In this document: piece by piece, positions 1-41,332 of the stretch | Layout: every line of letters starts with the position of its first letter | How positions within the stretch are numbered: the first letter of the stretch is position 1 | Assembly: GCA_964633125.1 (NCBI GenBank) | Contig: CAZWDN010000002.1 | Coordinates: 2,104 to 66,103, forward strand | Direction: 5' to 3' | DNA from: an uncultured Pirellula sp. | GTDB lineage: Bacteria; Planctomycetota; Planctomycetia; Pirellulales; PNKZ01 | DNA length: 64,000 nt | Position numbers and translations under genes: made by a program | Notes under the pieces: generated by a model | Seen by the model: the letters and a program-made list of their open reading frames with translations, nothing else | Told to the model about the DNA's origin: nothing | Database searches by the model: none

Positions 1-1
1 G

Positions 2-1600
2 TCGGATTTCGCCGAGCGGATCATTGACGCCGGGTTCCGCTCTTTGCCAGGTCGGAATGCGCTCGATCTCGGGGCGCTGAAGCTGCGCTATGCCGCGGTC
101 AAGTGGCTTCGGCCGATCGCGTATTTCGAGTCACTAGAGGTCCGTAAGATTCCGGCTGCCGTCGACCTGTTTTTGGAGGATCGCCGCGACGGCGAATATG
201 CAGCCCTGTGGCGAGCGATGGCCGAGCGCTTCGGATTTCGGCTCCGGACTCGCGTCGCTCCGAGCCCACGGCAGTCGACGCCTGCCGAGGGCGGCCGCCT
301 GAAATTAATCGCTCGAAGACTTGTCGGCCGCGCATTGGCGAGCTACGTGAGGATGCGCGTCGCAACACGCGGCCCATCGCGACGCGGCCCGCATGTAGTG
401 CTTTGCGGCAATCCGCGAATTCTCAATCCGGTCTGCGACGCGCTATTGGAACAAGGCGCTCGCGTGTCATGGCTTGTAGATCGCTTTCCGATTCGGCATG
501 GCTGGGCTCGCCGCAATGATTCGATTGGTTGGATCGTGTGTGATCGTATGGAGTCGCGGCAGTTTCCGACGTCGATCGCTTTGCCGCCGCTATGCCACGG
601 CGGCGTCGACTTAAGCAGGGTTGTCGAGTCCTGGCTTGCCGCTCAGGAGGAAACGCAGACCGCCGAAGTGGCTCGGTGCGCATCGGGGATGCGCGCCCAA
701 CTGCGACGCGACCCGCCGTCGCACGTCATCGTTGATGAGGATGCCACGCCGCTGAAGCGTTTGGTCATTCGTGAATCTCGTAGTCTTGGCGCGTCATCGC
801 AAGTCGTGCAGCATGGAGTATGCGGAATCCGCTTCGGTTTCACGCCGCTGCTTGCCGACCGCATCTTGGCGTGGGACGACGGCTCGCGACGGCAACTCGA
901 GTCTTGGGGAGTCGGTTCCGAGCAAATTTCCGTCGTCGGCCCGATTGCACGAGAGTCGTTCACGAGCGAAGTGCTGCGACATCGCGCAGAACGCGCGTCC
1001 GACGACTCGCGACGCGTGTTGCTGCTGCTGACGACGCCGCCTCGCGACGATCGGCCGGACGCCGTGGAGTTCCACTTCACGTCCGCATCCCACGCCGCGA
1101 TGCTGAGGTTCGTAGCGAAAGAGGTCGCACGCCTGGAAGGCGTCGAGTTCATCGTCAAGCGACATCCTCGATCCTCAGCGGATGCGGCGCTCGAAACGGC
1201 GCTGCGGTCCGAGCCGTCGCTCTCCGCGAAGATCGTATCGCACGGTTCGCTCGCCCAGTGGATCGGCGCGTCCGATTGCGTTCTGAGCTGCGGCTCAAGT
1301 GCGGGCCTTGAAGCTGCGTCGGCCGGTGCCCCGGTCGTACAGGTTCTTCCCCCCGGCTCCGGCAACATCGTGCCGGCCGCATGGTACGGCATGTTGGGAA
1401 CCGCGCGCACGGGGAGGGAACTACGATCGTTGCTTGCTACGGCGTTGTCGCGAGGGTTTTGCGCGGAGGGATTTTCCAACGGTTTTCCGTCGCAATTCTC
1501 CCCTGCGCAAAGAATCGCCGCGCAAGTGCTCGCAGCAGATCGTCCGCAGAATCTGCGTCGGCGCCAGATCTTGCTCCCATCGTCCGCCGGAGCGCATTAG
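2..1600 (+). CDS. Putative GT-B-fold transferase of the glycopolymer locus (5' end outside window)
   Basis: The frame is open from the window edge, with no stop between nt 2 and the TTG at 44, so the gene is 5'-partial. The C-terminal half has a GT-B/Rossmann-like pattern (RRVLLLLTTPPRDD ... FIVKRHPRSS ... ASDCVLSCGSSAGLEAASAGAPVV) that resembles TagF/KpsS-type or other GT-B transferases. The family cannot be resolved by eye. Confidence 0.5.
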   Translation, partial: SDFAERIIDAGFRSLPGRNALDLGALKLRYAAVKWLRPIAYFESLEVRKIPAAVDLFLEDRRDGEYAALWRAMAERFGFRLRTRVAPSPRQSTPAEGGRLKLIARRLVGRALASYVRMRVATRGPSRRGPHVVLCGNPRILNPVCDALLEQGARVSWLVDRFPIRHGWARRNDSIGWIVCDRMESRQFPTSIALPPLCHGGVDLSRVVESWLAAQEETQTAEVARCASGMRAQLRRDPPSHVIVDEDATPLKRLVIRESRSLGASSQVVQHGVCGIRFGFTPLLADRILAWDDGSRRQLESWGVGSEQISVVGPIARESFTSEVLRHRAERASDDSRRVLLLLTTPPRDDRPDAVEFHFTSASHAAMLRFVAKEVARLEGVEFIVKRHPRSSADAALETALRSEPSLSAKIVSHGSLAQWIGASDCVLSCGSSAGLEAASAGAPVVQVLPPGSGNIVPAAWYGMLGTARTGRELRSLLATALSRGFCAEGFSNGFPSQFSPAQRIAAQVLAADRPQNLRRRQILLPSSAGAH

Positions 1601-1601
1601 G

Positions 1602-2558
1602 ATGACCTCGCAAGCAAAGCCAGAATTTGATTGGGGAGCGTTTGCGGCACGTTGCCTCAAGCCTGATCCGCATCGGCTCGGTACTTGGACCGCTCGTCGC
1701 TGGGGCCGTCCGCTGGCCCTGCGCGTAACGCGCGTCGTTGCTCCTTGGGGCTTCTCGGCGAACTCGGCGACGATCGCGGCTTGCCTGGTCGCTTTCTTGG
1801 CCTGCATCGCATTTTGCATGGGCGAACTATCGGGGCTGACCGTCGGTTGCATGTTGCTGCATGTTTGGTATTTGCTTGACCATGTCGACGGCCAACTCGC
1901 CCGCCTTCAGGGAACGGCATCGCTCGACGGTACGGCCCTCGATTATCTGATGCATCACGGCGTGCAGTTGTTCGTGCCGCAAGCCGTCTGCTTCGGGCTC
2001 TTTTGCAACACTGCGGCAACCGTCTGGTTGTTTGCGGGCGCGGCTTGGGGGGGCGGGGCTTTGATGCTGGGCCTGCGCCACGACGTACGCTACAAGGCCT
2101 TTATTCAACGGCTAAAACTGCTTCATGGAGAACTGCGTCTTGTGGGCGGCGGCGGCGGGCGTCCGGAACCTGCCAAGCTCCCTGGTCGCGCATGGCTGCA
2201 AGTATTCCGCTGGTGCTTGATGAAGTGTTACGAAACGCACATCGTTTTGATGTCGCTTTCCGTCATAGTTGCCGCCGCTTGGGCGATGGACGGGGCATGG
2301 GCGCCCGCCTTGTCTGCATACGTCGCGGCAATGGCACTGCCGGCACCTTGCGTCGCTCTTTATCTCGTTGCTCGAACGATTCGGCAAGGAGACGCGGAAC
2401 GCGAGTTCGCCGCCTGGTTTCGCGTGCCGGACGACTCGGCGTTGGAGCTACGCGACGGCTGGTGGTATGTCGCTCCGATCGAGGACGCGATTCAGCGGCC
2501 GCATCGGACGAACATCGGTTTGCCGGCATCTCCGGCAAGCTGCGACGGCTTGTCTTGA
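1602..2558 (+). CDS. CDP-alcohol phosphotransferase family membrane protein
   Basis: The ATG at 1602 lies 1 nt after the upstream stop; the ORF-track start at 1299 overlaps the upstream gene. The protein is multi-TM and carries the signature DHVDGQLAR-x8-G-x3-D (nt 1878-1955), but the last motif position is His instead of Asp. Confidence 0.8.
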   Translation: MTSQAKPEFDWGAFAARCLKPDPHRLGTWTARRWGRPLALRVTRVVAPWGFSANSATIAACLVAFLACIAFCMGELSGLTVGCMLLHVWYLLDHVDGQLARLQGTASLDGTALDYLMHHGVQLFVPQAVCFGLFCNTAATVWLFAGAAWGGGALMLGLRHDVRYKAFIQRLKLLHGELRLVGGGGGRPEPAKLPGRAWLQVFRWCLMKCYETHIVLMSLSVIVAAAWAMDGAWAPALSAYVAAMALPAPCVALYLVARTIRQGDAEREFAAWFRVPDDSALELRDGWWYVAPIEDAIQRPHRTNIGLPASPASCDGLS

Positions 2559-2626
2559 CCGTCGCATATCGGAAGCCGTAGATTGCCTCTCCGCAAGCTC
2601 AGGGAAGAGTCTGCGCCGGGGGGAGC

Positions 2627-4336
2627 ATGGAAGCGGTCGACGTCGATATCCTCGTGCTGAACCATAATGGTCGAGCCCTCTTGGCGGAGTGCCTGCCGTC
2701 GGTGGTGTGCGCCGCGGCAAACTCGCGATATGCCTGTCGCGTGACGCTCGTCGATAACGCCTCGACCGATGATTCTTGCGACTTCGTCGCGCGCGAGTTC
2801 ACTTCCGTCTTACTGGTATCGATGCCCAACCTCGGGCTTTGTTCGTTTAACAAAGCCGTCGCAGCGTGTACGGGGCGCGTCGTTCTTTTGCTCAATAACG
2901 ACATTCGCCTGGCTGATGACGCGATTGATCCGTTGGTCGATCCGCTCATCAGCACGGTCGTAACCGATGAACCGGTGTTTCTCACCGCCCCGCAATGCGT
3001 GTTGTTCGACGGCGTAACGCACGAGGGCTTTCAAGCCGCCGTCGGTTGGCGGTTTGGACTCGTGCAGGCGACCTCGCTGTTTCCCGGCGCCGAATCCGTC
3101 GCTGATCGTCTCGGGCCGACCGCTTCTGCCGGGGCCGCAATTGCCGTCGATCGCAGGGCCTTTCTGGAACTCGGGGGCTTCGATCCGCTTTACCTGCCCG
3201 GCCGAATTGAAGATCTGGATTTCTGCTTCCGCGGATTCCTGGCCGGATATCGCGCGCTCTACATACCGTCGGCGAGAGCCTGGCATCGAGGCGCCGCATC
3301 GTTCGGCCCGGCATTCGGACGGCAGGGGTGCCTCGGTCTAGCGACTCGCAACACGCTCCTCTTTCAATGGAAGAATCTGCAAACGTTCCGACATCGCCTC
3401 CGCGGCGTCGCATCGCTACCGCTGCGATTCGCGTGGGACGCGATTCGCAGCGTCGGACGCGTGCAAGCCGAGCGATTTCCATTCCGGCGGGCCTATCGCG
3501 AGGCGCGACGGATTTGGCGGACGCAGCCGCGCAGCCCCGCTTTTGCCCGACCGCAGGGGGCGTCGTATGACCTGCGCGAGCGAGAGTTCTTCGCTCGACA
3601 TACCGCCGCTCGACTCCGTTCGAAGCCGATCGAAAACCTCGAAGTGTGGCGCGGGGAAGAATCCCGGCGCGCGGCGCGGTATCCCGTCGCACGATGGTAT
3701 TTGCGGCCGTTGTGTGAATGGGCCGCGTTCGCCCTGCGATATACCCCCGTCGCTCCTTGGCAGATCACATGCGCCGGTTCGGTATTCGCCGTCACGGCGG
3801 CGGTAAAGATGCTCGTCGACGGTGCGGCGGGACCGGCGGCCGCCCTGTTGATACTCGTCGCCTACTTCTTCGATCGACTCGACGGTCCCCTGGCGCGATT
3901 GAAGAAGTGCACAACGCCGCTTGGCGCGTGGCTCGACGCCAATGTGGATGAAGCCGTCGATCTCGGCTTGCATGCCTGTACGGCGGCCGTGGCCTCGCGG
4001 CAGTGGAACTCGTCGTGGCCCTGGATGTTCCTTGTCGGGTTTCTGGTCGGCAAGTATTTGTTGATGTACGGACTCCATGCGCAAGGCGACGTTACGGCGC
4101 TTGATGCGCAGTCCAAGAGTCAAAACGGGCGATCCGCCGGATGGTTGCGTAGGCTTTACCACTTGCCGGCAAATTCCGACGTACGCATGCATCTCTTGAT
4201 CGTCGCGACGGCGACGGGATTGCTCGTCGAAGAATTGGCCGCGGTCGCTTGTTACTACAATTTGCGCTGGCCGTTGCGATACGTTTTGGTTGCGAAACGA
4301 ATGTCGGGCGCAGTCGCCGTGCGAGGCGCCGCATGA
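2627..4336 (+). CDS. Fusion protein: family-2 glycosyltransferase (N-terminal) + CDP-alcohol phosphotransferase (C-terminal)
   Basis: The N-terminus has GT2 motifs (VDILVLNHNGRALL, LVDNASTDDS, EDLDFCFR). The C-terminal TM domain carries a complete D-x2-DG-x2-AR-x8-G-x3-D-x3-D motif (DRLDGPLARLKKCTTPLGAWLDANVD, nt 3872-3949). It is one uninterrupted 569-codon frame. Confidence 0.8.
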   Translation: MEAVDVDILVLNHNGRALLAECLPSVVCAAANSRYACRVTLVDNASTDDSCDFVAREFTSVLLVSMPNLGLCSFNKAVAACTGRVVLLLNNDIRLADDAIDPLVDPLISTVVTDEPVFLTAPQCVLFDGVTHEGFQAAVGWRFGLVQATSLFPGAESVADRLGPTASAGAAIAVDRRAFLELGGFDPLYLPGRIEDLDFCFRGFLAGYRALYIPSARAWHRGAASFGPAFGRQGCLGLATRNTLLFQWKNLQTFRHRLRGVASLPLRFAWDAIRSVGRVQAERFPFRRAYREARRIWRTQPRSPAFARPQGASYDLREREFFARHTAARLRSKPIENLEVWRGEESRRAARYPVARWYLRPLCEWAAFALRYTPVAPWQITCAGSVFAVTAAVKMLVDGAAGPAAALLILVAYFFDRLDGPLARLKKCTTPLGAWLDANVDEAVDLGLHACTAAVASRQWNSSWPWMFLVGFLVGKYLLMYGLHAQGDVTALDAQSKSQNGRSAGWLRRLYHLPANSDVRMHLLIVATATGLLVEELAAVACYYNLRWPLRYVLVAKRMSGAVAVRGAA

Positions 4337-5160
4337 CGTCGCCGCGCATCACCGCAATCGTGCTTGTACTCAATGAGGCGGACAACCTACGGGCGTTGCT
4401 GCCGCAGCTTAGTTGGGCCGATGAGACGCTCGTGATCGACGGCGGTTCCACCGACGAATCGGTCGCAATCGCCCAATCGCTCGGCGCGCGAACGATCCGT
4501 CGGCCGTTCGATGATTTCGCATCACAACGCAATGCGGCATTGGCCGAGGCAAGAGGCGAATGGGCGCTCTATATCGACGCCGACGAGCGCCCTTCGTCGC
4601 GATTGGCGGACGAGATTCGGCTGCGCATCGGCGCCGGCGGCCGCCAAGGGTACCGCGTGCCGATTCGCAGCACGATCTTCGGTCGCAGGTTTCGCTTCTC
4701 CGGTACGCAAGACGATGCGCCGTTGCGTCTTGTCGCCCGGCGCGCGGGTTCCTGGAGCGGGGCGGTCCATGAACGGTTTAGCGCCGAGGGAGCCGTCGGT
4801 TTACTGGATTCGCACTTGGAACATTTCACGCTGCCGACAGTGCCGGCCTTTCTCGGCAAGATGCAGCGTTACACGACGTTAGCCGCCGAGGCACGCGTTC
4901 GCGACGGCAGCATTCCGCGCGCCGCCGACGCATGGCTCCGACCCTTGCTGGAGCTGTTTCGCCGGCTTATCTGGAAACATGGTTGGCTCGACGGGCCGCA
5001 AGGCTGGGCGTTTTGCGGCCTCAGCGCCCTCTCCGAATGGTCGTTGGCGAACAAGCATCGCCGACGATGGCGCGCCGCGTCGTCCACGGCCTCGACCGGC
5101 AACCTCAAAAGAGGCGAACTCCGTCCGGCGCTCGCTCTCACGGAGGGGGGCGTATCATGA
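4333..5160 (+). CDS. Family-2 glycosyltransferase
   Basis: There is an ATGA start/stop overlap with the upstream gene at 4333-4336. The N-terminus reads ITAIVLVLNEADNL...VIDGGSTDES, followed by IDADERP (DxD-like). Confidence 0.85.
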   Translation: MTSPRITAIVLVLNEADNLRALLPQLSWADETLVIDGGSTDESVAIAQSLGARTIRRPFDDFASQRNAALAEARGEWALYIDADERPSSRLADEIRLRIGAGGRQGYRVPIRSTIFGRRFRFSGTQDDAPLRLVARRAGSWSGAVHERFSAEGAVGLLDSHLEHFTLPTVPAFLGKMQRYTTLAAEARVRDGSIPRAADAWLRPLLELFRRLIWKHGWLDGPQGWAFCGLSALSEWSLANKHRRRWRAASSTASTGNLKRGELRPALALTEGGVS

Positions 5161-6617
5161 TCGGACAATCGCCGCCGCTATTGCCCGTCGCAGATGCCGG
5201 GTTATCAGCCCCTTGGGTGCGGATGCTCTCACAAGAAGGGGTGCCGACGGTGCCTCACCGCACCGATACCGCCGTCGCCGCATTTGTGCTTTATGATGCA
5301 AGGTTGACGCCATCCCCGCGACTTTGTTCGCCCGAACAGCGGGCGATCGACGTTTCGCTCTTCGAGTTCGATGTGATCGCCGTCGATGTCTCCGCGCTTG
5401 CCGCACCGAAAACGGCGCGCACGTTTTGGCAAGTGGGACGGCATCAAGTGTCCGAAATTACGGCGGCCGCCGACCATCGCGCCGTTCGTCAACGATTGAT
5501 GGCGAGACTGCGACAAGCAATTGAGGAGTTGGGAGGAGTCTGGATCGTCACATCTCCCTTTCCGTGGCCCTTTCGCACGGCGGCGAACTTCCGTTTCGAT
5601 CACGATCGTTACGTCGCGGAGGATTTTGCCGGCGTCCTCGACGCAATCCGCGGCCATGAAGAAATGACGACTCATTTCGTCTGCGCCGCCACGCACGCTG
5701 CACACCCTGAAGCCTTGGCGGCTTTGCGCGACCTTGACGTCGGTTCGCACGGCTACCACCATCACACATATCTGACTTTGGCCGAAAACCTCAACGGCAT
5801 CAGTCGCTGCGTCGACTTTCTGCACAACTGCGGAATTGAGCCCGGCGGGTTCGCGGCGCCTCTCGGACGCTACAATCCCGGCTTGGCCGCGGCGATTACT
5901 TCGCTCGGTATCTCCTACAGCTCGGAATTCGCCGCCGCGTACGATGATCTACCGTTCGCGCCTACCGGAACGGATACTCTTCAAATCCCAATCCATCCCG
6001 TTTGCCTCGGAGCGGCTTTCGACGCCGCGGAGTCTAAAGCGTTCATCGCGCGAGAGAACGTGGCGGACGCGATGGGCGATTACTTTGCCGCCGCCGTCGC
6101 CGAAAGGCATGCCGCCGGCGAGCCCGTCTTCTTCTACGGCCATCCCGACGGCCGTGTCGGTCGTTATCCGCAGGTCTTGCGGCGATTCTTCGACGCCATC
6201 GATCAGCATGGCGATATTTGGCTTACGACGCTCGGCGAGTTCGCTCGTTGGTGGCGTGCTCGCAGCACGGTGCGCTGGAGCGTGCACGGTTCGGCGGTAG
6301 CTCCGGTTCTTCGAGTCGAAGCACTTCCCAATGGTTTTCCTTGCGCAATTCAGTGGGCACGCGGCGAGTTGCGCGCGACCGCATCCCTGGAGCTAGGAGA
6401 ACATCGTCTCGAACCGCCGGCCTTGCGGTTTGAGGCTTTCGGTGAGTTGGCGCTCACACGCCCGGTGCGTAGCGAACCGTTATGCGGCCTTCGCACTCGG
6501 TTGCATCAGATGTTCGATTGGGAATATGAGACGCCCGTTGCGGAGATTGATGCACGACGTTGGCGCGGGTGGATCAAGCGCTCTATCCGCATGGTGAAGG
6601 GGCGATCGCAATGCTAG
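5157..6617 (+). CDS. Polysaccharide deacetylase (NodB-homology domain) with ~200-aa N-terminal extension
   Basis: There is an ATGA overlap at 5157-5160. NodB-like motifs are present: FRFDHDRY, VGSHGYHHH, LGRYNPG. Confidence 0.7.
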   Translation: MIGQSPPLLPVADAGLSAPWVRMLSQEGVPTVPHRTDTAVAAFVLYDARLTPSPRLCSPEQRAIDVSLFEFDVIAVDVSALAAPKTARTFWQVGRHQVSEITAAADHRAVRQRLMARLRQAIEELGGVWIVTSPFPWPFRTAANFRFDHDRYVAEDFAGVLDAIRGHEEMTTHFVCAATHAAHPEALAALRDLDVGSHGYHHHTYLTLAENLNGISRCVDFLHNCGIEPGGFAAPLGRYNPGLAAAITSLGISYSSEFAAAYDDLPFAPTGTDTLQIPIHPVCLGAAFDAAESKAFIARENVADAMGDYFAAAVAERHAAGEPVFFYGHPDGRVGRYPQVLRRFFDAIDQHGDIWLTTLGEFARWWRARSTVRWSVHGSAVAPVLRVEALPNGFPCAIQWARGELRATASLELGEHRLEPPALRFEAFGELALTRPVRSEPLCGLRTRLHQMFDWEYETPVAEIDARRWRGWIKRSIRMVKGRSQC

Positions 6618-7726
6618 ACGCCCCAATCACCTCAACGGTCCGTCACAACGTATTCACTACGTCGGAAGCCGCTGCGACTCCGCGAGCCCGACTTCGTATT
6701 CGCACTGCGGCCCGACTGGACGCGTGGTCGGCCGGAGGCGGCGGTGAAGTGCAGATGGCGGCCACGACGCGCGAACTGCACCGCTTGGGCATCGACGCCC
6801 GTCCGTGGCGTCCTTGGGACGCCGACGAACTGCAAGCCGGCGACGTGGTGCATTTCTTCGGCAGTCGCCCCGAGTTTGTCGAGCCCGCGGAAGCGTTGAA
6901 AAGGCGCGACGTCCGGGTCGTCGTTTCGACGATCGCTTGGTTCGACTGGCGCAATACGCTGCGTGAGCCGACGTCTCTGGTCCGCAGAAGCTGCGACCTC
7001 GCTCGCTATGCGATGCGGGCCGCGTTCCCGCGGCTGCCGTCGTGGCGCCGCCGCTTGTATCAAGCCGCGGATCTGTTGTTGCCGAATTCACTGTCCGAGG
7101 CGGAGCAGCTCATCCGGCTCTTTCAGATGCCGCGGGCGAAAGTTCGCATCGTTCCCAACGGCGTCGATCCACGATTTGCGGCCGCCGATGCTCGGCAATT
7201 TCAGTCATGTTACGGTCACGACCCCTTCGTGCTTTGCCCAGGTCGAATCGAACCTCGGAAAAACCAGTTGGCTCTCATTCGCGCCTTGCATGGCAAGGGG
7301 ATTCGACTGGTTCTGCTTGGCGACGTCGTGACCGGCCACGAACGCTACGCTGCCGCTTGCCGCGCCGCAGCAGACGACTTGGTGCTTTTTATCGGCGGCG
7401 TTCGTCACGACGACCCGTTGCTCGCGTCGGCGTACGCAGCTTGTCGTTGCATTGCGCTGACGAGCTGGTATGAAACGCCGAGCTTGGCGGCGCTAGAGGC
7501 GGCGCTATGCGGAACGCCGCTCGTACTTCCCTCCGGCGGCAGCGCTCGGGAGTATTTTGGTCCGCTCGCACGCTATGTGGCGCCGCATGATTTGGCGGAG
7601 ATTCACGCCGCGGTATCGGCCGCCGCCGCCGAATCGCGTTCGAGTCGCTTGGCAAATCTGGTGAGCGGGCAATTCACTTGGCAACACGTGGCCGAAGCCA
7701 CCTGGGCGGCGTATGACGCTCTTTAG
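6611..7726 (+). CDS. Glycosyltransferase, GT-B group 1 (GT4-like)
   Basis: The start overlaps the upstream stop (ATGCTAG at 6611-6617). The C-terminal half is typical of GT4: PNGVD...GRIEPRKNQ...LVLLGD...SWYETPSLAALEA...GTP. Confidence 0.85.
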   Translation: MLDAPITSTVRHNVFTTSEAAATPRARLRIRTAARLDAWSAGGGGEVQMAATTRELHRLGIDARPWRPWDADELQAGDVVHFFGSRPEFVEPAEALKRRDVRVVVSTIAWFDWRNTLREPTSLVRRSCDLARYAMRAAFPRLPSWRRRLYQAADLLLPNSLSEAEQLIRLFQMPRAKVRIVPNGVDPRFAAADARQFQSCYGHDPFVLCPGRIEPRKNQLALIRALHGKGIRLVLLGDVVTGHERYAAACRAAADDLVLFIGGVRHDDPLLASAYAACRCIALTSWYETPSLAALEAALCGTPLVLPSGGSAREYFGPLARYVAPHDLAEIHAAVSAAAAESRSSRLANLVSGQFTWQHVAEATWAAYDAL

Positions 7727-8963
7727 CAATCTCTCACAACGCTATCGCTTCGTCCGCCGAAGCCGCAGTTTGCTGATGGCGACGATTGACGCCGTCGGTT
7801 GGGCGTTGTTGCGTCTGCTTCGTCGTGATCAGCGTGACGCGGCCCCTCCCTCGCCTCAATCTGTGAAACGGATTTTGCTGATTCAGCTCGACCACTTCGG
7901 GGATGCGGTCCTCACTACATCGATCTTGCCGACGCTGCGACGTCGTTTTCCCGAAGCCGCCGTCGACGTGCTGGCGGCGCCGTGGAATTGGGAAGTGTTT
8001 GCCGCTTCGCAAATCGTAGCGCGTATTCATATTTCCCGCCGCAATCGATTTCATCGGGGCGCCTCATGGCTTTGGCCGCTGGGGTTTTTGTATTGGGCGT
8101 GGAAACTGCGCAGCACGGGATATGATTTGGCCGTCGATGTGCGGGGCGACTTTGTCAATGCCGTCTTAATGTGGGCGGCCGGCATTCCTTCTCGACTCGG
8201 TTGGGATTGCGCCGGCGGCGGTTTCTTGCTAACGCATAGCGCACCGTTTCAGCCGGGGCGCCACGAAGTGCATTCGCGGCACGCGTTGCTGACGACCATC
8301 GGAGCCCGCCCGACGTCGGGCGATGTGCCGAACGTTGTGCCGACCCCCGATGCGGAACAGTTTGTCTCGTACCTCCTGGGCGACTTTCGCAGCGGTGGGC
8401 GTCCGTTACTTGTGCTTCATGTCGGGGCGGGTACGCCGGCCAAAACTTGGCCCGCGCGACATTGGCGAGAACTTCTCGGCCGTTTGGCCCTAGAGCAAGA
8501 CGCCCGGGTGATTCTTGTCGGCTCCGCGGCCGACCGCCAAACGGCGGAAGAAATTACGCAAGGCATGTTCTGGCCCGGCGTAATGGATTGGACCGGACGA
8601 CTCAACGTCGCCCAACTCGCGGCCCTAACGCGACGCTGCTCGCTGTTCATCGGCGGCGATAGCGGACCGGCGCATTTAGCGGCCGCCGCCGGAGCGAAAG
8701 TGCTTTCGATCTTCAGCGGCACGAACTCCGCCGAACAGTGGCGGCCGTGGGGGGAGCGAGTCACCGTGATATCACAGCCGGTTGCGTGTTCGCCATGCTA
8801 TTCAAATCAATGTCGTCTGCGTGAACATCTTTGTATGCAAGAGGTGCTTCCGGCGCGCGTGGCCGAAGTGATCGACACGGCGCTCCATGGCCGATCGATG
8901 CCTGCCGCTCCGTACTTTCTCAAGTTCCCCATTCGGAGCGAGCGGCGGGGTGACCAAACATGA
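7713..8963 (+). CDS. Family-9 glycosyltransferase (heptosyltransferase-like)
   Basis: It overlaps the upstream gene by 14 nt. GT9 hallmarks are present: ILLIQLDHFGDAVLTTSILPTLRRRFPEA ... LFIGGDSGPAHLAAAAG. Confidence 0.85.
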   Translation: MTLFSNLSQRYRFVRRSRSLLMATIDAVGWALLRLLRRDQRDAAPPSPQSVKRILLIQLDHFGDAVLTTSILPTLRRRFPEAAVDVLAAPWNWEVFAASQIVARIHISRRNRFHRGASWLWPLGFLYWAWKLRSTGYDLAVDVRGDFVNAVLMWAAGIPSRLGWDCAGGGFLLTHSAPFQPGRHEVHSRHALLTTIGARPTSGDVPNVVPTPDAEQFVSYLLGDFRSGGRPLLVLHVGAGTPAKTWPARHWRELLGRLALEQDARVILVGSAADRQTAEEITQGMFWPGVMDWTGRLNVAQLAALTRRCSLFIGGDSGPAHLAAAAGAKVLSIFSGTNSAEQWRPWGERVTVISQPVACSPCYSNQCRLREHLCMQEVLPARVAEVIDTALHGRSMPAAPYFLKFPIRSERRGDQT

Positions 8964-9190
8964 TCGCTCCCATTCGGCCGACCAATTACAGAGCCTCCCC
9001 GCCGCCGCGCGGTACGAGTATGCGCAAGGCCCGGCGCTGGATTGTGCAGAGCCTGTTTTCGCGCCGCGACGATAACGGCTCGGATGAGATTCGCATCTCC
9101 TCGCGCGCGGCTTGGCTCGCCGCAGCATGGATGCTGCTGGTTTCCGGCGCGTTTGTCGTATTTACCGCGCTGGCGCGCTTCGGTACGTAG
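8960..9190 (+). CDS. Small hypothetical peptide with C-terminal TM helix, or detached N-terminus of the next gene
   Basis: An ATGA overlap with the GT9 stop (8960-8963) suggests translation initiates here. There is one hydrophobic helix (AAWLAAAWMLLVSGAFVVFTALA). The ORF is in the same reading frame as the 9209 ORF, separated only by a TAG at 9188-9190. Confidence 0.3.
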   Translation: MIAPIRPTNYRASPPPRGTSMRKARRWIVQSLFSRRDDNGSDEIRISSRAAWLAAAWMLLVSGAFVVFTALARFGT

Positions 9191-9208
9191 TGTGTACTTT
9201 GTGAAAAC

Positions 9209-11164
9209 ATGGCCATCTTGCTTCAACTACGCTCTGTTGTCGCTTGCGCCGCGATTCTAGTCGTAGCGCACGCGGTAGGGCGCATCGCGGCTCGATGTTT
9301 GCGATTTACGGCCGAAGATCACGCTGCGGCCGTCGTTTGGAACACGGCTTTAGGTTTCGTCCTCTGCGGTAGCCTTTTCACGGCGTTAGGGCTCACGGGC
9401 TCGCTTTACGGCCACCTGATCTTCGCACTAACGACGGTCGGCGTCGTTGCCGAGGGTGTGTATCAAGTCCGGCGTCGATCAAAGCGAGCAAGCTGCGCAT
9501 GGATGAATTATGCGGCGATGCCGCTTGAACCGCCGCGATACTTGGAGTTGCCGAATTGGCTGTACCGATTGCTGCTCGTCGGCGTATCGACGGCCGCCGC
9601 GGCAGCATTGCTTAGTGCGTTGGCGCCTCCAATCGCCGGCGACGCGTTGTGTTATCACCTCGAACTCCCGAAGCGATACTTGCAAGCACACGCCCTCACG
9701 CATCTTCCCTACAGCGACAACTCAACCTATCCGTTGTTGGCCGAAATGTGGTTTCTTTGGGGCCTCGCGCTCGACGGCCCGATTGCGGCGCAACTCATCC
9801 ACTGGTCGTGCGGCTTGTTGCTTGCCGGTGGAGCGTACGTCGTCGGCCTCCCGATAGTCGGCCGCCGCGCTGCGGTCGTCGCGGCGTGTCTGACGTTGCT
9901 CACGCCGGGCGTCAATAATCAAATGACGGCCCCGCTTAACGACGTCGCGCTGGCGGCGTTTACCACATTGGCCTTCGCCGCGACCTGTCGTGCCGTTCGA
10001 CAGGGTGAAACGACGGCGTTTGTCGTCGCCGGTCTGATGCTTGGTGGTGCTCTGGCGGTAAAGTTCACGGCACTTGTGTTCGTCGTCGCAGGCTTGGCGG
10101 CAATCGTCGTCGCCGCGCTGGGCAATCATCGCGAGATTTCGTTCATCGCTCGCGGCGTCGGCGTCGCTGCCGTCATGGCATCGATCTTGGCCGGCCCTTG
10201 GTATGCCCGCGCATGGTACTATCAAGGCGACCCTCTGTACCCTTTCCTCTCCTCGCAATCGCATTCGCGATCGACTTTGGAACCATCAGGTTCGTCGCTC
10301 TCGCAAACTCCCTTGAAGCAGGCTTCGGCGTTTCCGACTTCGAAAACACCGCTTGGCCGCGGGCCGACGGCTTGGCTGGAAGCCCCTTGGCTCATGACGA
10401 TGCAGCCGGAGCGTTTCGGCGGTCGCGGCCATCAACTCGGCCCGTTCTGGCTGATGTCGCTGCCGCTGGTGGGGCTCGTTCCAGCGGCGCTTCGCTTTCG
10501 ACTCGCTCCACTATTCTTGGTTGTATTGCCGTATGCCGGGGCTTGTTTGCTGCTCCGACAGAACGTACGGTTCCTCCTGCCGTTGGTGCCGTTTGGGGCG
10601 GTGGTCGTCGTGTGCGTTTGGTCGACATTTCTCGGCTGGCCCCGCGCCCCGCGCGTCGTCGGTTGGTTCGCGGTGGCCGGCGTCTTGCTGTTGCTGACGC
10701 TCATTCCCGTCGGCCGTGCGCGGCATCACGTCGGCGTCGCCGTCGGACTGGAAAGCCGCGCGGAATACCTTTCGCGATGCGAGCCGACCTTTGCCGCCGC
10801 ATGCTGGGCAAATGCCCATCTGCCCCCCGGCGCGCACCTGCTCAGCCAGGAGCATCGAGCCTACTGGTTCCAATCGACGCTGACTCGCGATAACATCTTC
10901 CGGCGGTCGCACGACTATTCTGCGGCGTTGACCGCCGAGGCGGCGACGCTTAGCCCGACGTTGCGATCGCACGGTTTTACCCATCTGTTGTTGGCGGAAG
11001 CCGAGGGTTCCGATACGCCGGCATATGAGGCGACGTTGTCCCAAGCCTTTGAGCAAGAATTGCGGAAGGCGGGGCCGGAAAGTGCGCCGAAGGTTGTTGC
11101 CGAGTTTCGTGCCGCGGTGCCGGAAGCCGGTCCACGGCGCTATCGCATCGTCGAACTTCGCTGA
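9209..11164 (+). CDS. Polytopic membrane protein, GT-C (ArnT/PMT-like) glycosyltransferase candidate
   Basis: There are roughly a dozen hydrophobic segments across the first ~480 aa, then a ~170-aa soluble C-terminal domain. An acidic first-loop motif ([16 protein letters not shown]) fits GT-C architecture. Confidence 0.65.
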
Positions 11165-11202
11165 TTTTCATATCATCCGAAAAACGAAACGATCCAATCT
11201 CG

Positions 11203-12399
11203 ATGCAAACTTCCGACGTAGTCGTAATCGGTGGCGGCATTGTCGGTCTCGCAGCAGCCTACCAACTCACGAAGCTTCGCCCCGGTGTGAGCGTCGTCGT
11301 CTTGGAGAAGGAAGACGGCCCGGCCCGTCATCAAACGGGACACAATTCCGGCGTGCTTCATTCCGGCATTTACTACAAGCCCGGGTCGCTGCGCGCTCTG
11401 AACTGTCGAAGCGGCAAGCGATTGATGGAGGAGTTTTGCCGCACGGAGTCGATTCCGTTTGAAGTCTGCGGCAAAGTTATCGTGGCCTGCGGCGAGAATG
11501 AGTTGCCCGGTCTCAAACGCATCTACGAGCGCGGTAAGGCCAACGGCGTCGATTGCGCGATGATCGATCAAGCACGGCTCCGCGAACTCGAACCGCATAC
11601 GGCGGGTATTGCGGCGATTCATGTGCCTGAAGCCGGCATCGTCAACTACGGCGCCGTCTGCCGCCGCTTGGTCGAACTGGTTGAACAAGCAGGCGGGAAG
11701 TTTGTAGCGCAAGCCGCCGTGACGGCGATACGGCAAGAGGTGGATGTCGTAACGCTCGAGAGCCGAGCCGGGCAGTTTCGAGCCCGCTGGGTCGTCAACT
11801 GCACCGGCCTGCAATCCGATCGAACGACCCGGCTCAGCGGTCGCGAGCCGGAAGTGAAGATCGTGCCGTTTCGCGGCGAGTACTTCGAACTTCACGATGC
11901 GGCCAAGCGGCTGTGCCGTAACCTGATCTATCCGGTCCCTGATCCGAGCTTTCCGTTCTTGGGGGTCCACTTCACGCGGATGATTAACGGCAGCGTGGAG
12001 TGCGGCCCCAATGCCGTATTGGCATTTGCCCGCGAAGGGTATCGTAAGCGCGATGTCAACTTACGCGACCTTGCCGAGACGTTAGCTTACGCCGGCTTCC
12101 TGCGAATGGCGGCCAAGCATTGGCGCACCGGTTGCGGCGAGATGTGGCGATCGTTCAGTAAGGCGGCTTTCGTTACGGCACTTCAGCATCTGGTACCGGA
12201 TATTCGCAGCGAAGACCTCGACGCCGCTCCCGCCGGCGTCCGTGCCATGGCTTTGGCGCGCGACGGTTCCATCGTCGACGACTTCGTTATCGAGGAGCAC
12301 TTGCGGGTAGTAAACGTCTGCAATGCCCCCTCCCCTGCGGCGACATCGTCCCTTCAGATCGGACTTTCGATCGTCGAACGGTTCGTGGGGCGACTCTAA
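11203..12399 (+). CDS. lhgO: L-2-hydroxyglutarate oxidase-like FAD-dependent oxidoreductase
   Basis: It has an N-terminal FAD fold ([16 protein letters not shown]) and [21 protein letters not shown], which is typical of the LhgO family. Confidence 0.85.
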
Positions 12400-12558: not shown

Positions 12559-13500
12559 ATGGATGGCTTAGCCCCGGCCCTGCCGACGCTTGCAACTGAG
12601 CGAACACAGGCGTCCCCGCGCGCCTGCGACGTCACGATTCTGCTCCCCGCCTACAACGAAGAGCGGGCAATCACGCACGTGTTGCACGAGATCGTCGCCG
12701 CGTTGGAGGATGAGCCTCTCCGGTTCGAGATCCTTATCGTCGACGACGCATCCACGGACCGTACGGTAGATTACGCCGAGCGATTCGCGGAGCAATGCCT
12801 GCGTTGTCCGGTGCGCGTGATCCGTCGCCCTGAAAATCGCGGTGCCGGCGCCGCCCGTAAGATCGGCGTCCGCGAGGCGCATGGCGACATCATCGTCATG
12901 CTCGACGCCGACGGCAGCTATCCTGCTTACGCCATTCGCGACTTGCTCCGCCATTTCCCTGCTTACGATCAGGTCAACGGGGCGCGAACTTCCGAGCAAG
13001 GCACGATGCCGCTCTTGCGCAAGCCGGCAAAGTGGGCCATTCGCAAGCTCGCCTGCTATCTCACCGGCCGCGATATCCCCGACCTAAACACCGGCCTCAA
13101 GGCCTTCAAACGCGACGCAATGCTGCCCTGGCTCTGGTCTGTGCCCGACGGCTTTAGCTGCGTTACGACGATGACGCTCGCCTTTCTCACCAACGGCTAT
13201 GCCGTAAAGTACGTGCCGACGGAGTACCGGCGGCGCATCGGTAAAAGCAAGTTCCATCCGATCAAAGATACGCTCGCCTACCTTAACACGGTGGTGCGAA
13301 TCGTTTCCTACTTCCGCCCGCTCCGCGTCTTCTTTCCGGCGGCCGCCGCGGTCGTCGGCCTTGGGATTGCAAAAAGCATCCACAGTTGGTCGACGACCGG
13401 CAGTATGCAAGAGTCCGATATCGTCGTTCTGACGGCGGGCTTTCTTACAATGATGTTCGGTCTCCTGGCCGAAATCGTCGTCGCCCATCATCGCCGCTAA
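12559..13500 (+). CDS. Family-2 glycosyltransferase of polyprenyl-phosphate-sugar synthase type (Dpm1/GtrB-like)
   Basis: Motifs VTILLPAYNEE, IVDDASTDRT and MLDADGS are followed by two C-terminal TM helices, as in GtrB/ArnC/Dpm1-type enzymes. Confidence 0.85.
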   Translation: MDGLAPALPTLATERTQASPRACDVTILLPAYNEERAITHVLHEIVAALEDEPLRFEILIVDDASTDRTVDYAERFAEQCLRCPVRVIRRPENRGAGAARKIGVREAHGDIIVMLDADGSYPAYAIRDLLRHFPAYDQVNGARTSEQGTMPLLRKPAKWAIRKLACYLTGRDIPDLNTGLKAFKRDAMLPWLWSVPDGFSCVTTMTLAFLTNGYAVKYVPTEYRRRIGKSKFHPIKDTLAYLNTVVRIVSYFRPLRVFFPAAAAVVGLGIAKSIHSWSTTGSMQESDIVVLTAGFLTMMFGLLAEIVVAHHRR

Positions 13501-13511
13501 CGAGGTTGCAC

Positions 13512-15251
13512 ATGTCGGTCGAAACGTGTGCATGGAGTTCGGCCGTCGCGGACCGCGCTTGTCGGCAATCTCGCGATTTGACGCTTCGCGAACGGTATCT
13601 CGATGCCGCGTTACCGGCAATTCCGCGTATTCTTGCGGCCGTCGATCGCAACCCGTTCGGACCTTCCTACGGCTGTTGCGATCGTGAGTATTGGCATTAC
13701 CGCACGGCGGCTTTTCCTTCGGAGATGTACCAAGAGGCCGCCTTGTCGTTGGCCTTGGTTTATCGACATGCCTTGCCCCGCGGCGACTGGCAAGGCGACG
13801 CGCGCCTCGCGGAAGCCGCCGCGGCGATCCTGCGGTTTTCGGCTCGTAGCGCACATGCCGACGGCTCGGGCGACGACTACTATCCCCAAGAGCGAGCCCT
13901 CGGCGCAACCGTTTTCTCGCTGCAAGCCGCCGTGGAAGCGTATCGCCTACTGGAACTCGACGACCGCGAACTGCGTGAGTTCTTGCTTCGCCGCGCTCGC
14001 TGGGTCGCCGACCACGATGAATCGGGCCGATTGACGAATCATCATGCGTTGGCGGCCTTGGCCTTATGGCGCACCGGACAATTGTTCGACGATCCGCGAC
14101 TCCGCGAAGCGGCTCGCGCTCGCGTGCGTCGCGTCGTCGCTTGGCAATCGAGTGAAGGATGGTGGCCGGAGTACGAGGGCGCCGATCCCGGGTATCAGAC
14201 CGTCACCATCGATTGTTTGGCGAAGCTGCAGCGGGAAGCGGAGTTCGAAGGGCTCGAAGCTTCGCTACGGCTTGGTGTGGAGTTCTGCCGGCCGTTTCAA
14301 CATCTCGACGGCGGCTACGGCGGTGAATACGGCAGCCGGGGTACGCGGCACTTCTATCCCCACGGTATGGAATTGCTCGCCGAGAAGATTCCCTCCGCCG
14401 CGAAATTGGCCGACGGCTATCTCCGCGCATTGCCGACGGATGCGTCGGCCCGCTGGGACGACGACCGCATGTACGTCCATCGCGTCGCGAACTTGCTGGA
14501 GGCATATCTCGACTTCGCTCCGCGCCGAGCGGTTTGCGAAGTTGCGGACGAAAGCGAGTCGAACAACGATTGTCATTTTCCCGCTGCGGGCATCTATGTG
14601 ATTCGCGCAGGTCGGGAACAACTCATCACGTCGACCGCGCGCGGCGGCAACTTCTACTATTGCCGCCGCGGCACGGAAGGTTGCGAATCCGTGAACGATT
14701 CAGGCCTCGTCGTTGAGTTTAACGACGGTCGCCTCGCCGTCTCGCAAACGCACGGAGAGTCCCGCAATGTTCAGGTCGTGCACGATCCGGCCGATGGTCG
14801 ACTGACGAACCTTGTCGTTTCGGGCTCGTTGCATTTCGTGCGCTTCGAACGAGCGACGCCGGCGAAGCAAGCCGTGCTTCATTTCTTGGCCGGATCACTC
14901 GGCGCGGCCGGACGTACCATACTCCGCAAACTGCTGCAACGCCGCGTCATCGCCGCCCGGCGGCCGGCGCCGATTCGGCTGACGCGAACTTTCATACGCG
15001 GCGCAACGTGGAAAGTTCATGACGTCGTCGAATTGACGCACCCCCGCGTTCGTGTTTCGCGGCTGGCCTTTTCGTCCGATCTGCAAGCCGCCTACACCGC
15101 CGCCGCCAACGTCTTTCACGGCGGGCTCCGGCAGCCGTGGCGCGACCTCGGCGAGTATGTCGAGCTTCTCAATCGTGAGCGGCGGATCGAGATCACTTGC
15201 GATCTCGCTGCGTCGGCATTGCGGGCGGCCGCCCCGGCAAGCGAGGCCTAA
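13512..15251 (+). CDS. Hypothetical protein (largely alpha-helical; family not recognised)
   Basis: A long ORF in coding-like composition; the ATG at 13512 sits just after the upstream stop. Repeated W/Y-rich helical segments hint at an alpha/alpha-toroid fold, but this is a guess. Confidence 0.55.
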   Translation: MSVETCAWSSAVADRACRQSRDLTLRERYLDAALPAIPRILAAVDRNPFGPSYGCCDREYWHYRTAAFPSEMYQEAALSLALVYRHALPRGDWQGDARLAEAAAAILRFSARSAHADGSGDDYYPQERALGATVFSLQAAVEAYRLLELDDRELREFLLRRARWVADHDESGRLTNHHALAALALWRTGQLFDDPRLREAARARVRRVVAWQSSEGWWPEYEGADPGYQTVTIDCLAKLQREAEFEGLEASLRLGVEFCRPFQHLDGGYGGEYGSRGTRHFYPHGMELLAEKIPSAAKLADGYLRALPTDASARWDDDRMYVHRVANLLEAYLDFAPRRAVCEVADESESNNDCHFPAAGIYVIRAGREQLITSTARGGNFYYCRRGTEGCESVNDSGLVVEFNDGRLAVSQTHGESRNVQVVHDPADGRLTNLVVSGSLHFVRFERATPAKQAVLHFLAGSLGAAGRTILRKLLQRRVIAARRPAPIRLTRTFIRGATWKVHDVVELTHPRVRVSRLAFSSDLQAAYTAAANVFHGGLRQPWRDLGEYVELLNRERRIEITCDLAASALRAAAPASEA

Positions 15252-15254
15252 CCG

Positions 15255-17622: not shown

Positions 17623-17777
17623 GATTCCGAGAAATCGCCGGTGACGATGTAAAAAAGTGCGGGTTATGCCGGTTATCCGGCCGATCATAACGCTACGGAA
17701 TTTTTCGTCCCAGAGCGCTTCGTGCCGGCGTTGCATCGGCAGGCGACGAGCGTGACGTTGCCCGGAGACTGATTGTC

Positions 17778-22902: not shown

Positions 22903-22920
22903 CGGCGGAAAGCGACTTCT

Positions 22921-23850: not shown

Positions 23851-23890
23851 CGACATCCTACACGACTTCCCGCGCGCAATCGGACGTTTC

Positions 23891-24934: not shown

Positions 24935-25005
24935 TATAACCCGCCGCTTCTGACGGATCGAGTTTTTTGCACGCAGCCAATCGCACGCAGGCCGAAGGAG
25001 TCGGG

Positions 25006-30002: not shown

Positions 30003-30421
30003 GAAAGTGTCCTCCACGGCTATTGATGCCTGATGAACCAATATGGTAACGAATTTGGCAGCGCAAAAAAACGTCGCGGATGTCACAGCTTCGCTATCCT
30101 TCCTATTTGCGCAGCTGCATATTTGCGAGGCGCATGCGACCTTAACGACGGCGAAAGCATCGCGGATGAGGTGAACATGCGCGGCGGTGCGGGTCAAATT
30201 CGCTTTGTCGTTTTGGGCTGAAATCGCGATAATAGATAACGTGCGTGGAAATCCGCCGATTCAACGGCGACTACATTCGCACAGAATTTGCTCCGAAGAA
30301 AAGGGAAGGAAACGCGGCTGATCGGTGCGTAGGAACATTTCCGGCGTCGAGCCTGGGCTCGCCTTGGAAAAGCTTTGAACATCGACGGCGCCTCCACCCG
30401 TGGACGGCACCCGGGACATTG

Positions 30422-41277: not shown

Positions 41278-41332
41278 AATAGTGCTGCGTGTCGTGCAGG
41301 GGGGCCTGCCGACTCACTTGCTAGTTACGCAC

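Follow-up and report, generated by a model that had tools for sequence, protein, structure and literature searches.

A conserved planctomycete gene cluster, probably for a lipid-linked envelope glycan, with optional CDP-alcohol phosphotransferase-fold modules

We analysed a stretch of 64,000 nucleotides from an uncultured Pirellula sp. of the Planctomycetota (GenBank assembly GCA_964633125.1, contig CAZWDN010000002.1, positions 2,104 to 66,103 of the forward strand), called the window hereafter. According to its list of open reading frames (ORFs), positions 2-11164 are occupied by nine of them on the + strand, which we name P1 to P9. P1 (2-1600), a protein resembling glycosyltransferases (GTs) of the GT-B fold, is cut at its N-terminus by the left window edge. 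It is followed by P2 (1602-2558), a stand-alone membrane protein of the CDP-alcohol phosphotransferase (CDP-OH-PT) fold, and by P3 (2627-4336), in which a GT of family 2 (GT2; this part is P3N) is fused to a second CDP-OH-PT domain (P3C). Next come P4 (4333-5160), a small soluble GT2; P5 (5157-6617), a NodB-type (CE4) deacetylase; P6 (6611-7726), a GT4 of the GT-B fold; P7 (7713-8963), a GT9 of the heptosyltransferase family; P8 (8960-9190), a conserved single-pass membrane protein of 76 amino acids (aa); and P9 (9209-11164), a polytopic membrane glycosyltransferase of the GT-C fold. The operon that they form most likely assembles a lipid-linked envelope glycoconjugate in Planctomycetia.

Results

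A tightly packed operon of nine genes

Read from the sequence, the junction of P1 and P2 is TAGgATG (1598-1604) and that of P5 and P6 is ATGCTAG (6611-6617). ATGA overlaps join P3 to P4 (4333-4336), P4 to P5 (5157-5160) and P7 to P8 (8960-8963), and P6 and P7 overlap by 14 nucleotides (7713-7726; ATGACGCTCTTTAG). Gaps are found between P2 and P3, of 68 nucleotides (2558 to 2627), and between P8 and P9, of 18 nucleotides (9190 to 9209). The tight junctions are kept in orthologous loci whose proteins are 52-80% identical, hence the packing is not a product of chance. A scan for promoter-like and terminator-like sites found them no more frequent inside 2-11164 than in shuffled sequence, which fits a single transcript. 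Rfam gave zero matches on the window and on contig L086, a close relative described below.

Altogether, gene anatomy and conservation lend good support to P1-P9 being one translationally coupled envelope-glycan operon. An initial annotation of this DNA, made from its letters alone, had proposed the same: each junction lies exactly where it had been placed, the packing recurs in the orthologous loci, and the gene order that it suggested looking for in other Planctomycetota was found in about 80 of them. Its domain list is borne out by profile searches against Pfam and NCBIfam and, for the GT-B assignment of P1, by an AlphaFold model of an orthologue. It had named eight functions for the nine ORFs; the ninth, left without a name, is P8.

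The phosphotransferase-fold modules of P2 and P3

P3C (residues ~345-569 of P3) scores 40.4 bits against PF01066, whose cutoff is 22. It carries the full canonical signature of that family, D(x)2DG(x)2AR(x)8G(x)3D(x)3D, with D416, D419, G420, A423, R424, G433, D437 and D441 invariant in 18 sequences. P2 scores 21.1 bits, 0.9 bit under the Pfam cutoff, and matches AF2299 (PDB 4o6m) with E=5e-6; distant P2-like proteins do pass PF01066, with 32.7 bits. The family had initially been assigned to both proteins: the assignment stands as such for P3, and for P2 it falls just short of the cutoff and is upheld by the AF2299 match, neither protein being left without a relation to the fold. Among proteins of solved structure, AF2299 comes closest in sequence to both P2 and P3C, with phosphatidylinositol-phosphate (PIP) synthases next.

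The signature of P2 reads DHVDGQLAR-x8-G-x3-D-x3-H, or DxxDGxxAR-x8-G-x3-D-x3-H in its general form: the last aspartate of the canonical motif is changed to histidine. This histidine is present in 42 of 42 orthologues. A HMMER search with P2 of 1.84 billion representatives retrieved 1426 relatives at E<=1e-3, and the motif likewise ends in histidine in 118 of the 127 relatives that bear it. P2 represents a divergent subfamily of the CDP-OH-PT fold and not a canonical member. From the structural papers on AF2299 and PIP synthase, we take the last aspartate of the signature to be the proposed catalytic base; if that role is correct, its replacement in P2 would fit an altered nucleophile or donor.

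P2 also occurs fused to a Wzx-type flippase, in proteins P0243, P0245, P0254 and P0267 of about 790-965 aa and in an 813-aa ORF of locus L012 (7327-9768). In P3, the fusion partner is P3N (residues ~1-340), which matches PF00535 with 33.4 bits and whose GT2 motifs D43/N44, NND90-92 and E195/D196/D198 are invariant in 18 sequences. P3N is predicted to be a GT-A/GT2 enzyme of the WbbL/MftF-like type. An AlphaFold2 model of P3, with a predicted local distance difference test score (pLDDT) of 86, finds GT-A enzymes and GlfT2 as its top Foldseek matches. Full-length relatives of the fusion make up more than 90 clusters at 44-83% identity, and every organism-named match belongs to Planctomycetota.

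Among NCBIfam families, P2 comes closest to archaetidylinositol-phosphate synthase (42.5 bits, E=6e-11, cutoff 180), and the best score of P3 against the phospholipid-synthase equivalogs is 52 bits, with cutoffs in the range 170-180. The pssA equivalog gives 16-20 bits for P2 and P3 against a cutoff of 107. We do not regard P2 and P3C as ordinary PgsA or PssA enzymes, because they lie far below the equivalog cutoffs and are joined to GT2 and Wzx by fusion or coupling.

P1, a putative GT-B transferase

Full-length P1 is a soluble protein of 588 aa, of which the N-terminal ~56 aa lie outside the window. Its conserved motifs are DEDAT, QHG, HPR and SxxSSAGxEA, with DED(A) and HPR invariant. The window protein has no match in Pfam, PF04464 and PF05159 included, and weak matches to TIGR04396 and TIGR04326 in NCBIfam; among 30 orthologues, 21 weakly match Epimerase_2 (PF02350) and three weakly match PF05159. 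A profile of the P1 family aligns with KpsC (8fux) at E=3e-4, across the stretch KLHPR...SSAGxEA. The AlphaFold model of a full-length orthologue, 93% identical to P1, has a GT-B fold (pLDDT 83.6; predicted template-modelling score, pTM, 0.85); its top Foldseek matches are 2-epimerases of UDP-N-acetylglucosamine (UDP-GlcNAc), MurG, MshA and a TagF-like capsule polymerase.

By HHalign, the P1 family is related to a 626-aa protein of the distant locus L088 with 99.8% probability (E=5e-28). That protein passes the gathering scores of both PF04464 (TagB/TagF) and PF05159 (KpsC/S) and weakly matches the BFO_1060 family of nonulosonic acid (NulO) transferases, while P1 itself is far under the cutoff of the latter. 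BFO_1060 and Tanf_01245 are TagB-like transferases, carrying D/E-D/E-G and HP motifs, that are needed for adding pseudaminic or legionaminic acid derivatives in Tannerella forsythia (PMC5420450). Because of its relations to KpsC, TagB and BFO_1060 and its invariant DED(A) and HPR motifs, the best reading of P1 is a candidate transferase whose donor would be cytidine-activated and most likely an ulosonic acid. That P1 acts, like NeuC, as a UDP-GlcNAc 2-epimerase was set aside as a minor possibility: the profile favours KpsC, the HP and SSxG motifs fit transferases, and the strong homologue passes PF04464 and PF05159.

The core proteins P4 to P9

P4 (275 aa) has a DAD motif, matches PF00535 with 52.6 bits and contains no hydrophobic or transmembrane (TM) segment; an orthologue is found in 72 loci. 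P5 passes PF01522 (25.4 bits, cutoff 23.1) and possesses extra regions at both its N- and C-termini. Its metal motifs, an aspartate and a His-His pair, are near-invariant (D148/D150, H198/H202), and its profile aligns with the polysaccharide deacetylase 3rxz at E=9e-7. P6 matches PF00534 (51.4 bits) and PF13439 (44 bits), with the MSMEG_0565 family, PglJ and MshA as its best NCBIfam matches, all under their cutoffs. P7 has an N-terminal extension of ~50 aa and matches PF01075 with 131.5 bits. It stays under the cutoffs of the heptosyltransferase equivalogs, with 106 bits against 134.6 for TIGR02195 (heptosyltransferase II), 101 against 170 for TIGR02201 and 77 against 185 for TIGR02193.

P8, whose start overlaps the stop of P7, is composed of an N-terminal MIAPIR, a basic stretch and a C-terminal TM helix, and has no family match in Pfam or NCBIfam. 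In about 36 of 42 loci, P7 and P9 are separated by a P8-like ORF that carries the MIAP motif together with a hydrophobic segment at its C-terminus; these ORFs measure 69-103 aa, and one has an upstream extension of 123 aa. P8 might serve the GT-C or the GT9 enzyme as a subunit or adaptor.

P9 is of the PMT_2 type (PF13231, 37.5 bits, cutoff 26.1; PF02366, 24.4 bits), with about 10-12 hydrophobic segments and a C-terminal soluble domain. In its first loop, G144-D145-A146, Y149 and H150 are invariant. A profile search of the PDB returned no sequence match. P9 is predicted to be a final or extending transferase that acts in the periplasm. We rejected an Arn/Lgm-like route to a polyprenyl-phosphate-linked aminosugar made up of P4, P5 and P9: P4 is without a C-terminal TM segment, and the ArnC/AglJ-like GT2 is a separate gene (12559-13500).

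Conservation and modularity across Planctomycetota

A scan with one genome per species, in which P1 to P9 were mapped by tblastn and hidden Markov models (HMMs), yielded 80 loci. The gene order is kept in about 80 Planctomycetota loci at 43-80% identity, nearly all of them from metagenome-assembled genomes (MAGs) of Pirellulales, Thermoguttaceae or 'Planctomycetaceae', together with one complete genome. The locus labels read Planctomycetota in all cases except L052 (JABMRB010001388.1). Although labelled as a 'Candidatus Nealsonbacteria' MAG, this probably mis-binned contig holds P2, P3 and P4 in the typical planctomycete arrangement, at 48-58% identity.

Across these loci the invariant core is P3N-P4-P5-P6-P7-(P8)-P9, that is, GT2-GT2-NodB-GT4-GT9-(76 aa)-GT-C. 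The number of CDP-OH-PT domains, on the other hand, ranges from 0 to 2 per locus. Both P2 and P3C are present in about 40 loci; P3C occurs without P2 in at least 11, counted where at least 8 kb of upstream sequence is present, and P2 without P3C in two (L076 and L077). Neither domain is found in the locus DNA of 12 others, mostly soil Pirellulales MAGs (L028, L029, L033, L038, L044, L048, L049, L053, L054, L056, L066 and L073), all with a P3N-type GT2 and most with the rest of the core. As the CDP-OH-PT content varies and the core does not, the cluster is not 'built around CDP-alcohol phosphotransferase chemistry', as the initial annotation had put it: the CDP-OH-PT modules are accessory, optional add-ons to the pathway.

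With P2 present, the usual order, seen in about 27 loci, is a 249-aa cytidylyltransferase (CT), a HAD phosphatase, P1, a Wzx-type flippase, P2 and P3. The CT of these relatives passes PF02348, with KdsB subfamilies as its best NCBIfam matches. The flippase matches PF13440/PF01943 and stands next to P2 in about 33 relatives. Modules reduced to CT-Wzx-P2 (L041) or CT-HAD-Wzx-P2 (L040) also occur. Judged by these family matches, the CT seems to be of the type that activates ulosonic acids with cytidine monophosphate (CMP), and the combination of CT, HAD and NeuB points to a CMP-ulosonate route.

P2 relatives in distant lineages

Genes for P2-like proteins of about 30% identity lie in distant loci with GC contents of 41-64%, one of which (L091) is labelled Omnitrophota. 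We scored their neighbours with HMMs built from the planctomycete proteins. L088 combines NeuB, a PseB/LegB-like dehydratase, an acetyltransferase, Wzx, an aminotransferase, a P1-like protein (153 bits), a PseF-like cytidylyltransferase, the P2-like protein, two PMT_2-like proteins, GT2s, a GT4 and an Epimerase_2. L090 holds a GT9, two GT2s, a methyltransferase, NeuB, a PF02348 cytidylyltransferase, a P1-like protein (117 bits) whose stop overlaps the start of the P2-like gene, oxidoreductases and an Epimerase_2. In L089 and L091, Wzx is encoded immediately upstream of the P2-like protein, and L092 reads GT2, GT2, P2-like, Wzy_C-like and Epimerase_2.

P3N-like GT2s were recognized in L088 (282 bits) and in L092 (320 bits), where the gene adjoins that of the P2-like protein; P9-like GT-C enzymes were recognized in L088 and L091, with 214 bits each. 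Through these matches, a set formed by the P2-type protein, Wzx, the P3N-type GT2, the P9-type GT-C, the P1-type protein and CT/NeuB recurs across lineages that differ strongly in base composition.

Genes flanking the operon

The operon continues past the left window edge. On contig L086, which is 97.8% identical to window positions 1-11600, a HAD phosphatase gene ends one base 5' of the start of P1 and is preceded by the gene of a NeuB-family synthase (319 bits, under the NeuB cutoff of 399.65). This would bring the operon to at least 11 genes, in the order NeuB-like, HAD, P1 to P9. Toward P1, L086 carries citrate-synthase-family and PEP_mutase/ICL-family genes (opposite strand), DUF6798, NUDIX, a HAD hydrolase, a divergent SDR, the NeuB-family synthase and the said second HAD phosphatase. 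A link to phosphonates was rejected: the PEP_mutase/ICL-family gene of the relatives adjoins the citrate-synthase-family gene, and the pair is read as methylisocitrate lyase and methylcitrate synthase (prpB/prpC-like). Nor is a supply of dTDP-rhamnose through the divergent 'RmlD_sub_bind' gene established, at 40 bits against the rmlD cutoff of 224.

Downstream, the gene of the L-2-hydroxyglutarate oxidase LhgO (11203-12399, + strand; NF008726, 556 bits, cutoff 299) directly follows the GT-C gene in the window and in L001, L003, L005, L007, L019 and L086. It has no obvious tie to glycan synthesis and is probably a syntenic neighbour outside the pathway. Beyond it lie a polyprenyl-phosphate hexose synthase-like GT2 with a C-terminal TM segment (12559-13500, +; AglJ/Dol-P-hexose/ArnC-like), a 579-aa protein without family match (13512-15251, +), an MprF-type flippase-like protein (15255-16202, +; PF03706) and a second GT-C, PMT_2/Agl23-like (16051-17736, - strand). 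The GT2 gene is conserved downstream of the operon in relatives. Region 12559-17736 looks like a polyprenyl-phosphate-sugar synthase/flippase/GT-C system and is likely a second glycosylation module, which would supply lipid-phosphate sugar donors to the GT-C enzymes.

The sole CDP-linked donor pathway found in the window is encoded at 21733-25815, ~10 kb from the operon. It comprises CDP-glucose 4,6-dehydratase (454 bits), an SDR epimerase/reductase, a 325-aa ORF without family and glucose-1-phosphate cytidylyltransferase (321 bits); the dehydratase and the cytidylyltransferase are both above their equivalog cutoffs. A PolX-type DNA polymerase (26551-28269, -; pol beta domains and PHP) and an NHL-repeat/thioredoxin-like protein (28281-30197, -) are unrelated to the operon. 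Finally, a flagellar block at 41099-59610 encodes FlgF/G, FlgA, FlgH, FlgI and FlgK, along with unusually large filament-related proteins: a 1110-aa FlgL-like protein, a 1024-aa flagellin and a 930-aa FliD.

Discussion

We now propose a pathway for this operon, which we place within lipid-linked envelope glycan assembly. With a probability of roughly 0.4, P2 and P3C use a cytidine-activated donor to make a lipid-linked unit; glycosyltransferases elaborate it, it is flipped across the membrane, and the GT-C enzyme transfers it. P2 and P3C would act at the cytoplasmic face of the membrane, where they would create a membrane-anchored starting unit rather than a decoration, by transferring a group from the cytidine-nucleotide-activated donor to polyprenyl phosphate or a phospholipid-type acceptor. 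This step would replace a primer of the WecA/WbaP type, and P3C would work together with the early-acting WbbL-like GT2 fused to it, P3N. In relatives, the donor would be produced by the KdsB-like cytidylyltransferase, NeuB and the HAD phosphatase along a CMP-ulosonic-acid-type route, and P1 would be the matching TagB/KpsC/NulO-transferase-like enzyme that glycosylates the unit. P3N, P4, P6 and P7 would add sugars, and P5 would remove an N-acetyl group. The product would be flipped, in most relatives by the Wzx that they encode beside P2 or sometimes fused to it. In the periplasm P9, perhaps with P8, would transfer or extend the unit, onto an acceptor that could be a lipid resembling the core of lipopolysaccharide (LPS), another lipid or a protein; the neighbouring GT2/flippase-like/GT-C module would supply polyprenyl-phosphate sugars.

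A broader version of this idea is more doubtful. The P2 subfamily, and possibly P3C, might constitute an unrecognised class of priming or lipid-loading enzymes spread over several phyla, whose donor would be a CMP-linked ulosonic or nonulosonic acid (made by KdsB/PseF-like enzymes) or a CDP-linked unit, and whose product, after being flipped by the Wzx next or fused to them, would serve a dedicated P9-type GT-C. Such a class would parallel the WecA/WbaP primers, or the three-component GT2/flippase/GT-C systems, but depend on cytidine nucleotides.

In favour of the proposed pathway we count the invariant core with its modular accessory set, the module order and the Wzx::P2 fusions of relatives, the recurrence of P2-like genes beside Wzx and P1-, P3N- and P9-like neighbours, and the histidine variant. 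Several points weigh against it. The priming role of the CDP-OH-PT enzymes is purely our inference, and we know of no PF01066-family enzyme that acts on polyprenyl phosphate or on a CMP-sugar. Because 12 loci have neither CDP-OH-PT domain, the core can function without one in cis. The window lineage itself has NeuB-HAD-P1-P2, with neither a cytidylyltransferase nor a Wzx in the locus. The fusion of Wzx to P2 would fit a decorator acting at the last step as much as a primer. The lack of a conventional primer counts for the pathway, as phmmer searches with E. coli WecA and the catalytic domain of WcaJ, made over 1.48 Mb of loci and the window, brought up no homologue at E<=0.01; but the reach of single-sequence phmmer is limited and an enzyme such as WecA could lie elsewhere in the genome. 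Lastly, GT9, small GT2, GT4 and deacetylase are together the classical make-up of an LPS core cluster, which needs neither primer nor Wzx.

This last point leads to the main rival explanation, which we consider possible, albeit tentatively: the cluster would be of the LPS-core type, its core genes building an inner-core-like oligosaccharide on Kdo-lipid A (Kdo, 3-deoxy-D-manno-oct-2-ulosonic acid) at the cytoplasmic face. The GT9 would then correspond to WaaC/WaaF, the small GT2 and the GT4 to WaaE/WaaG/WabH and the NodB-type protein to WabN, with MsbA as the flippase. P9 would add a periplasmic sugar in the manner of ArnT/Rgt, for which the downstream GT2 would make the polyprenyl-phosphate donor; P2 and P3C would add phospho-substituents, and P1 an extra ulosonic acid. 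WabH/WabN, RgtA-E and ArnT are precedents for such roles. The 131.5 bits of P7 against the GT9 family, with heptosyltransferase II as its best NCBIfam match, speak for this explanation, as do the polyprenyl-phosphate-hexose synthase-like GT2, flippase-like protein and second GT-C directly downstream. With primer and flippase unneeded, it also matches the loci reduced to the core and the lack of phosphoglycosyl transferase genes. Moreover, the locus is conserved like a housekeeping trait, and the window encodes FlgH and FlgI, which imply an outer membrane.

Against an LPS-core function, P7 lies under every heptosyltransferase equivalog cutoff, and the 64-kb window and the inspected flanks yielded neither waaA nor lpx nor ADP-heptose genes. 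The phospho-substituents of LPS are known to be added by other enzyme families. The set of P2-like protein, Wzx, P9-like GT-C and P3N-like GT2 recurs without GT9 in distant lineages, which argues for a separate, Wzx-dependent lipid-linked pathway.

The initial annotation had suggested another product, a teichoic-acid-like polymer or phospho-substituted glycolipid. The CDP-OH-PT domains would then place phosphodiester-linked alcohol units on the glycan, drawing on CDP-alcohols such as CDP-glycerol, CDP-ribitol or CDP-inositol. We find this rather improbable. The PF01066 fold is indeed present and the motif of P3C intact; AF2299 and then the PIP synthases are the nearest solved relatives; P1 is remotely related to the TagB/TagF glycerophosphotransferases (PF04464) and to KpsC; and a cytidylyltransferase joins the module in relatives. 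That cytidylyltransferase, however, is KdsB/PF02348-like and stands with HAD and NeuB in a CMP-ulosonate order, while neither a CDP-alcohol synthase (of the TagD, TarI/IspD or IPCT type) nor an inositol-phosphate synthase was found in the locus or window. Of the wall teichoic acid set (TagO/TagA, CDP-glycerol or CDP-ribitol synthase, TagF polymerase, TagGH), none was identified among the annotated genes of the window and the relatives' loci, where the remote TagB-like relation of P1 is the sole trace. The CDP-OH-PT modules are, furthermore, dispensable in 12 loci, and we know of no PF01066 enzyme that decorates glycans.

That P2 and P3C should be ordinary phospholipid synthases (of the PgsA, PssA or phosphatidylinositol (phosphate) synthase type) merely lying among glycosyltransferase genes is highly improbable: archaetidylinositol-phosphate and PIP synthases are their best NCBIfam matches and the nearby HAD of relatives could be read as a phosphatase of phosphatidylglycerophosphate or PIP, but the scores are 42-52 bits where the equivalogs ask for 170-180, P3C is fused to GT2 in more than 90 protein clusters, P2 is coupled or fused to Wzx and lacks the last aspartate of the signature, and both are absent from 12 loci of which most otherwise have the full core.

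In the literature we found no account of the GT2::CDP-OH-PT fusion, of the histidine-variant subfamily or of this locus, and none of a CDP-OH-PT enzyme associated with Wzx or NulO, or of heptosyltransferase clusters in planctomycetes. Databases label the proteins of the operon only generically, and the literature searched describes no function for any of them. Little is understood of planctomycete envelopes, and this locus is among the most conserved glycan clusters in genomes of the Pirellulales and Thermoguttaceae type. If CDP-OH-PT proteins do start or lipid-load a glycan here, as we propose, the initiation of glycoconjugates would be a new role for a family known for the chemistry of phospholipid head groups, and the absence of a canonical priming enzyme from these clusters, here and in other phyla, would be explained. 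Should the LPS-core explanation be true instead, the locus would tell us which genes make the core oligosaccharide in this bacterial order. In P2, the conserved change from aspartate to histidine offers a concrete handle for mutagenesis.

Comparison with known systems

The LPS core (waa) clusters, taken together with ArnT/Rgt, resemble the operon and its downstream module in having GT9, a small soluble GT2, GT4, a deacetylase, a GT-C and a GT2 that synthesizes polyprenyl-phosphate sugars. They differ in that the operon has CDP-OH-PT enzymes and, in relatives, Wzx, that waaA and lpx are not found nearby, and that P7 scores below the equivalogs.

A similar logic links the operon to the mycobacterial pathway of phosphatidylinositol, its mannosides, lipomannan and lipoarabinomannan (PgsA1, the GT4 enzymes PimA/B, polyprenyl-phosphate-mannose synthase and GT-C mannosyltransferases) and to the eukaryotic glycosylphosphatidylinositol (GPI) pathway: an anchor made by a CDP-OH-PT enzyme, cytoplasmic GT4 steps, a flip, and GT-C enzymes that use polyprenyl-phosphate sugars. 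GPI synthesis also includes a de-N-acetylation step, and in NCBIfam P2 and P3C come closest to (archae)phosphatidylinositol-phosphate synthases. We nevertheless rejected an inositol-lipid pathway and keep the resemblance as an analogy only, since no inositol-phosphate synthase was seen in the locus or window and the PIP-synthase scores are far under the cutoffs. The deacetylase of the operon is, in addition, NodB-type and not LmbE/PIG-L-type, and the operon has a GT9 and a TagB-like protein.

AF2299 and the IPCT-DIPPS enzymes of archaea (PDB 4o6m, 4mnd) have the same fold and signature region, and in them a cytoplasmic domain of nucleotide-sugar type is fused to the TM domain, as in P3. Their partner domain, however, is cytidylyltransferase-like and not a GT2, their substrates are soluble inositol phosphates, and P2 has histidine in place of the last aspartate.

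The KpsS/KpsC system (GT107), which makes the poly-Kdo linker anchored on phosphatidylglycerol in group 2 capsules, also uses a cytidine-activated ulosonic acid, CMP-Kdo. Its transferases are GT-B-like, carry the HP motif and are aligned by the P1 profile, and its glycolipid is built on a phospholipid made by a CDP-OH-PT enzyme, PgsA; relatives of the operon carry a KdsB-like cytidylyltransferase and a HAD phosphatase. In contrast, the match between P1 and KpsC is weak (E=3e-4), Kps export relies on an ABC transporter and not on Wzx and GT-C, and the Kps system is without a dedicated CDP-OH-PT gene, a GT9, a GT2::CDP-OH-PT fusion or a deacetylase.

Finally, in the general protein O-glycosylation system of Tannerella forsythia, for which no partner of the CDP-OH-PT fold is described, TagB-like GT-B transferases with D/E-D/E-G and HP motifs use CMP-nonulosonic acids (PMC5420450). 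As in relatives of the operon, its locus has NeuB and a cytidylyltransferase, and a Wzx flips the lipid-linked oligosaccharide (PMC5420450).

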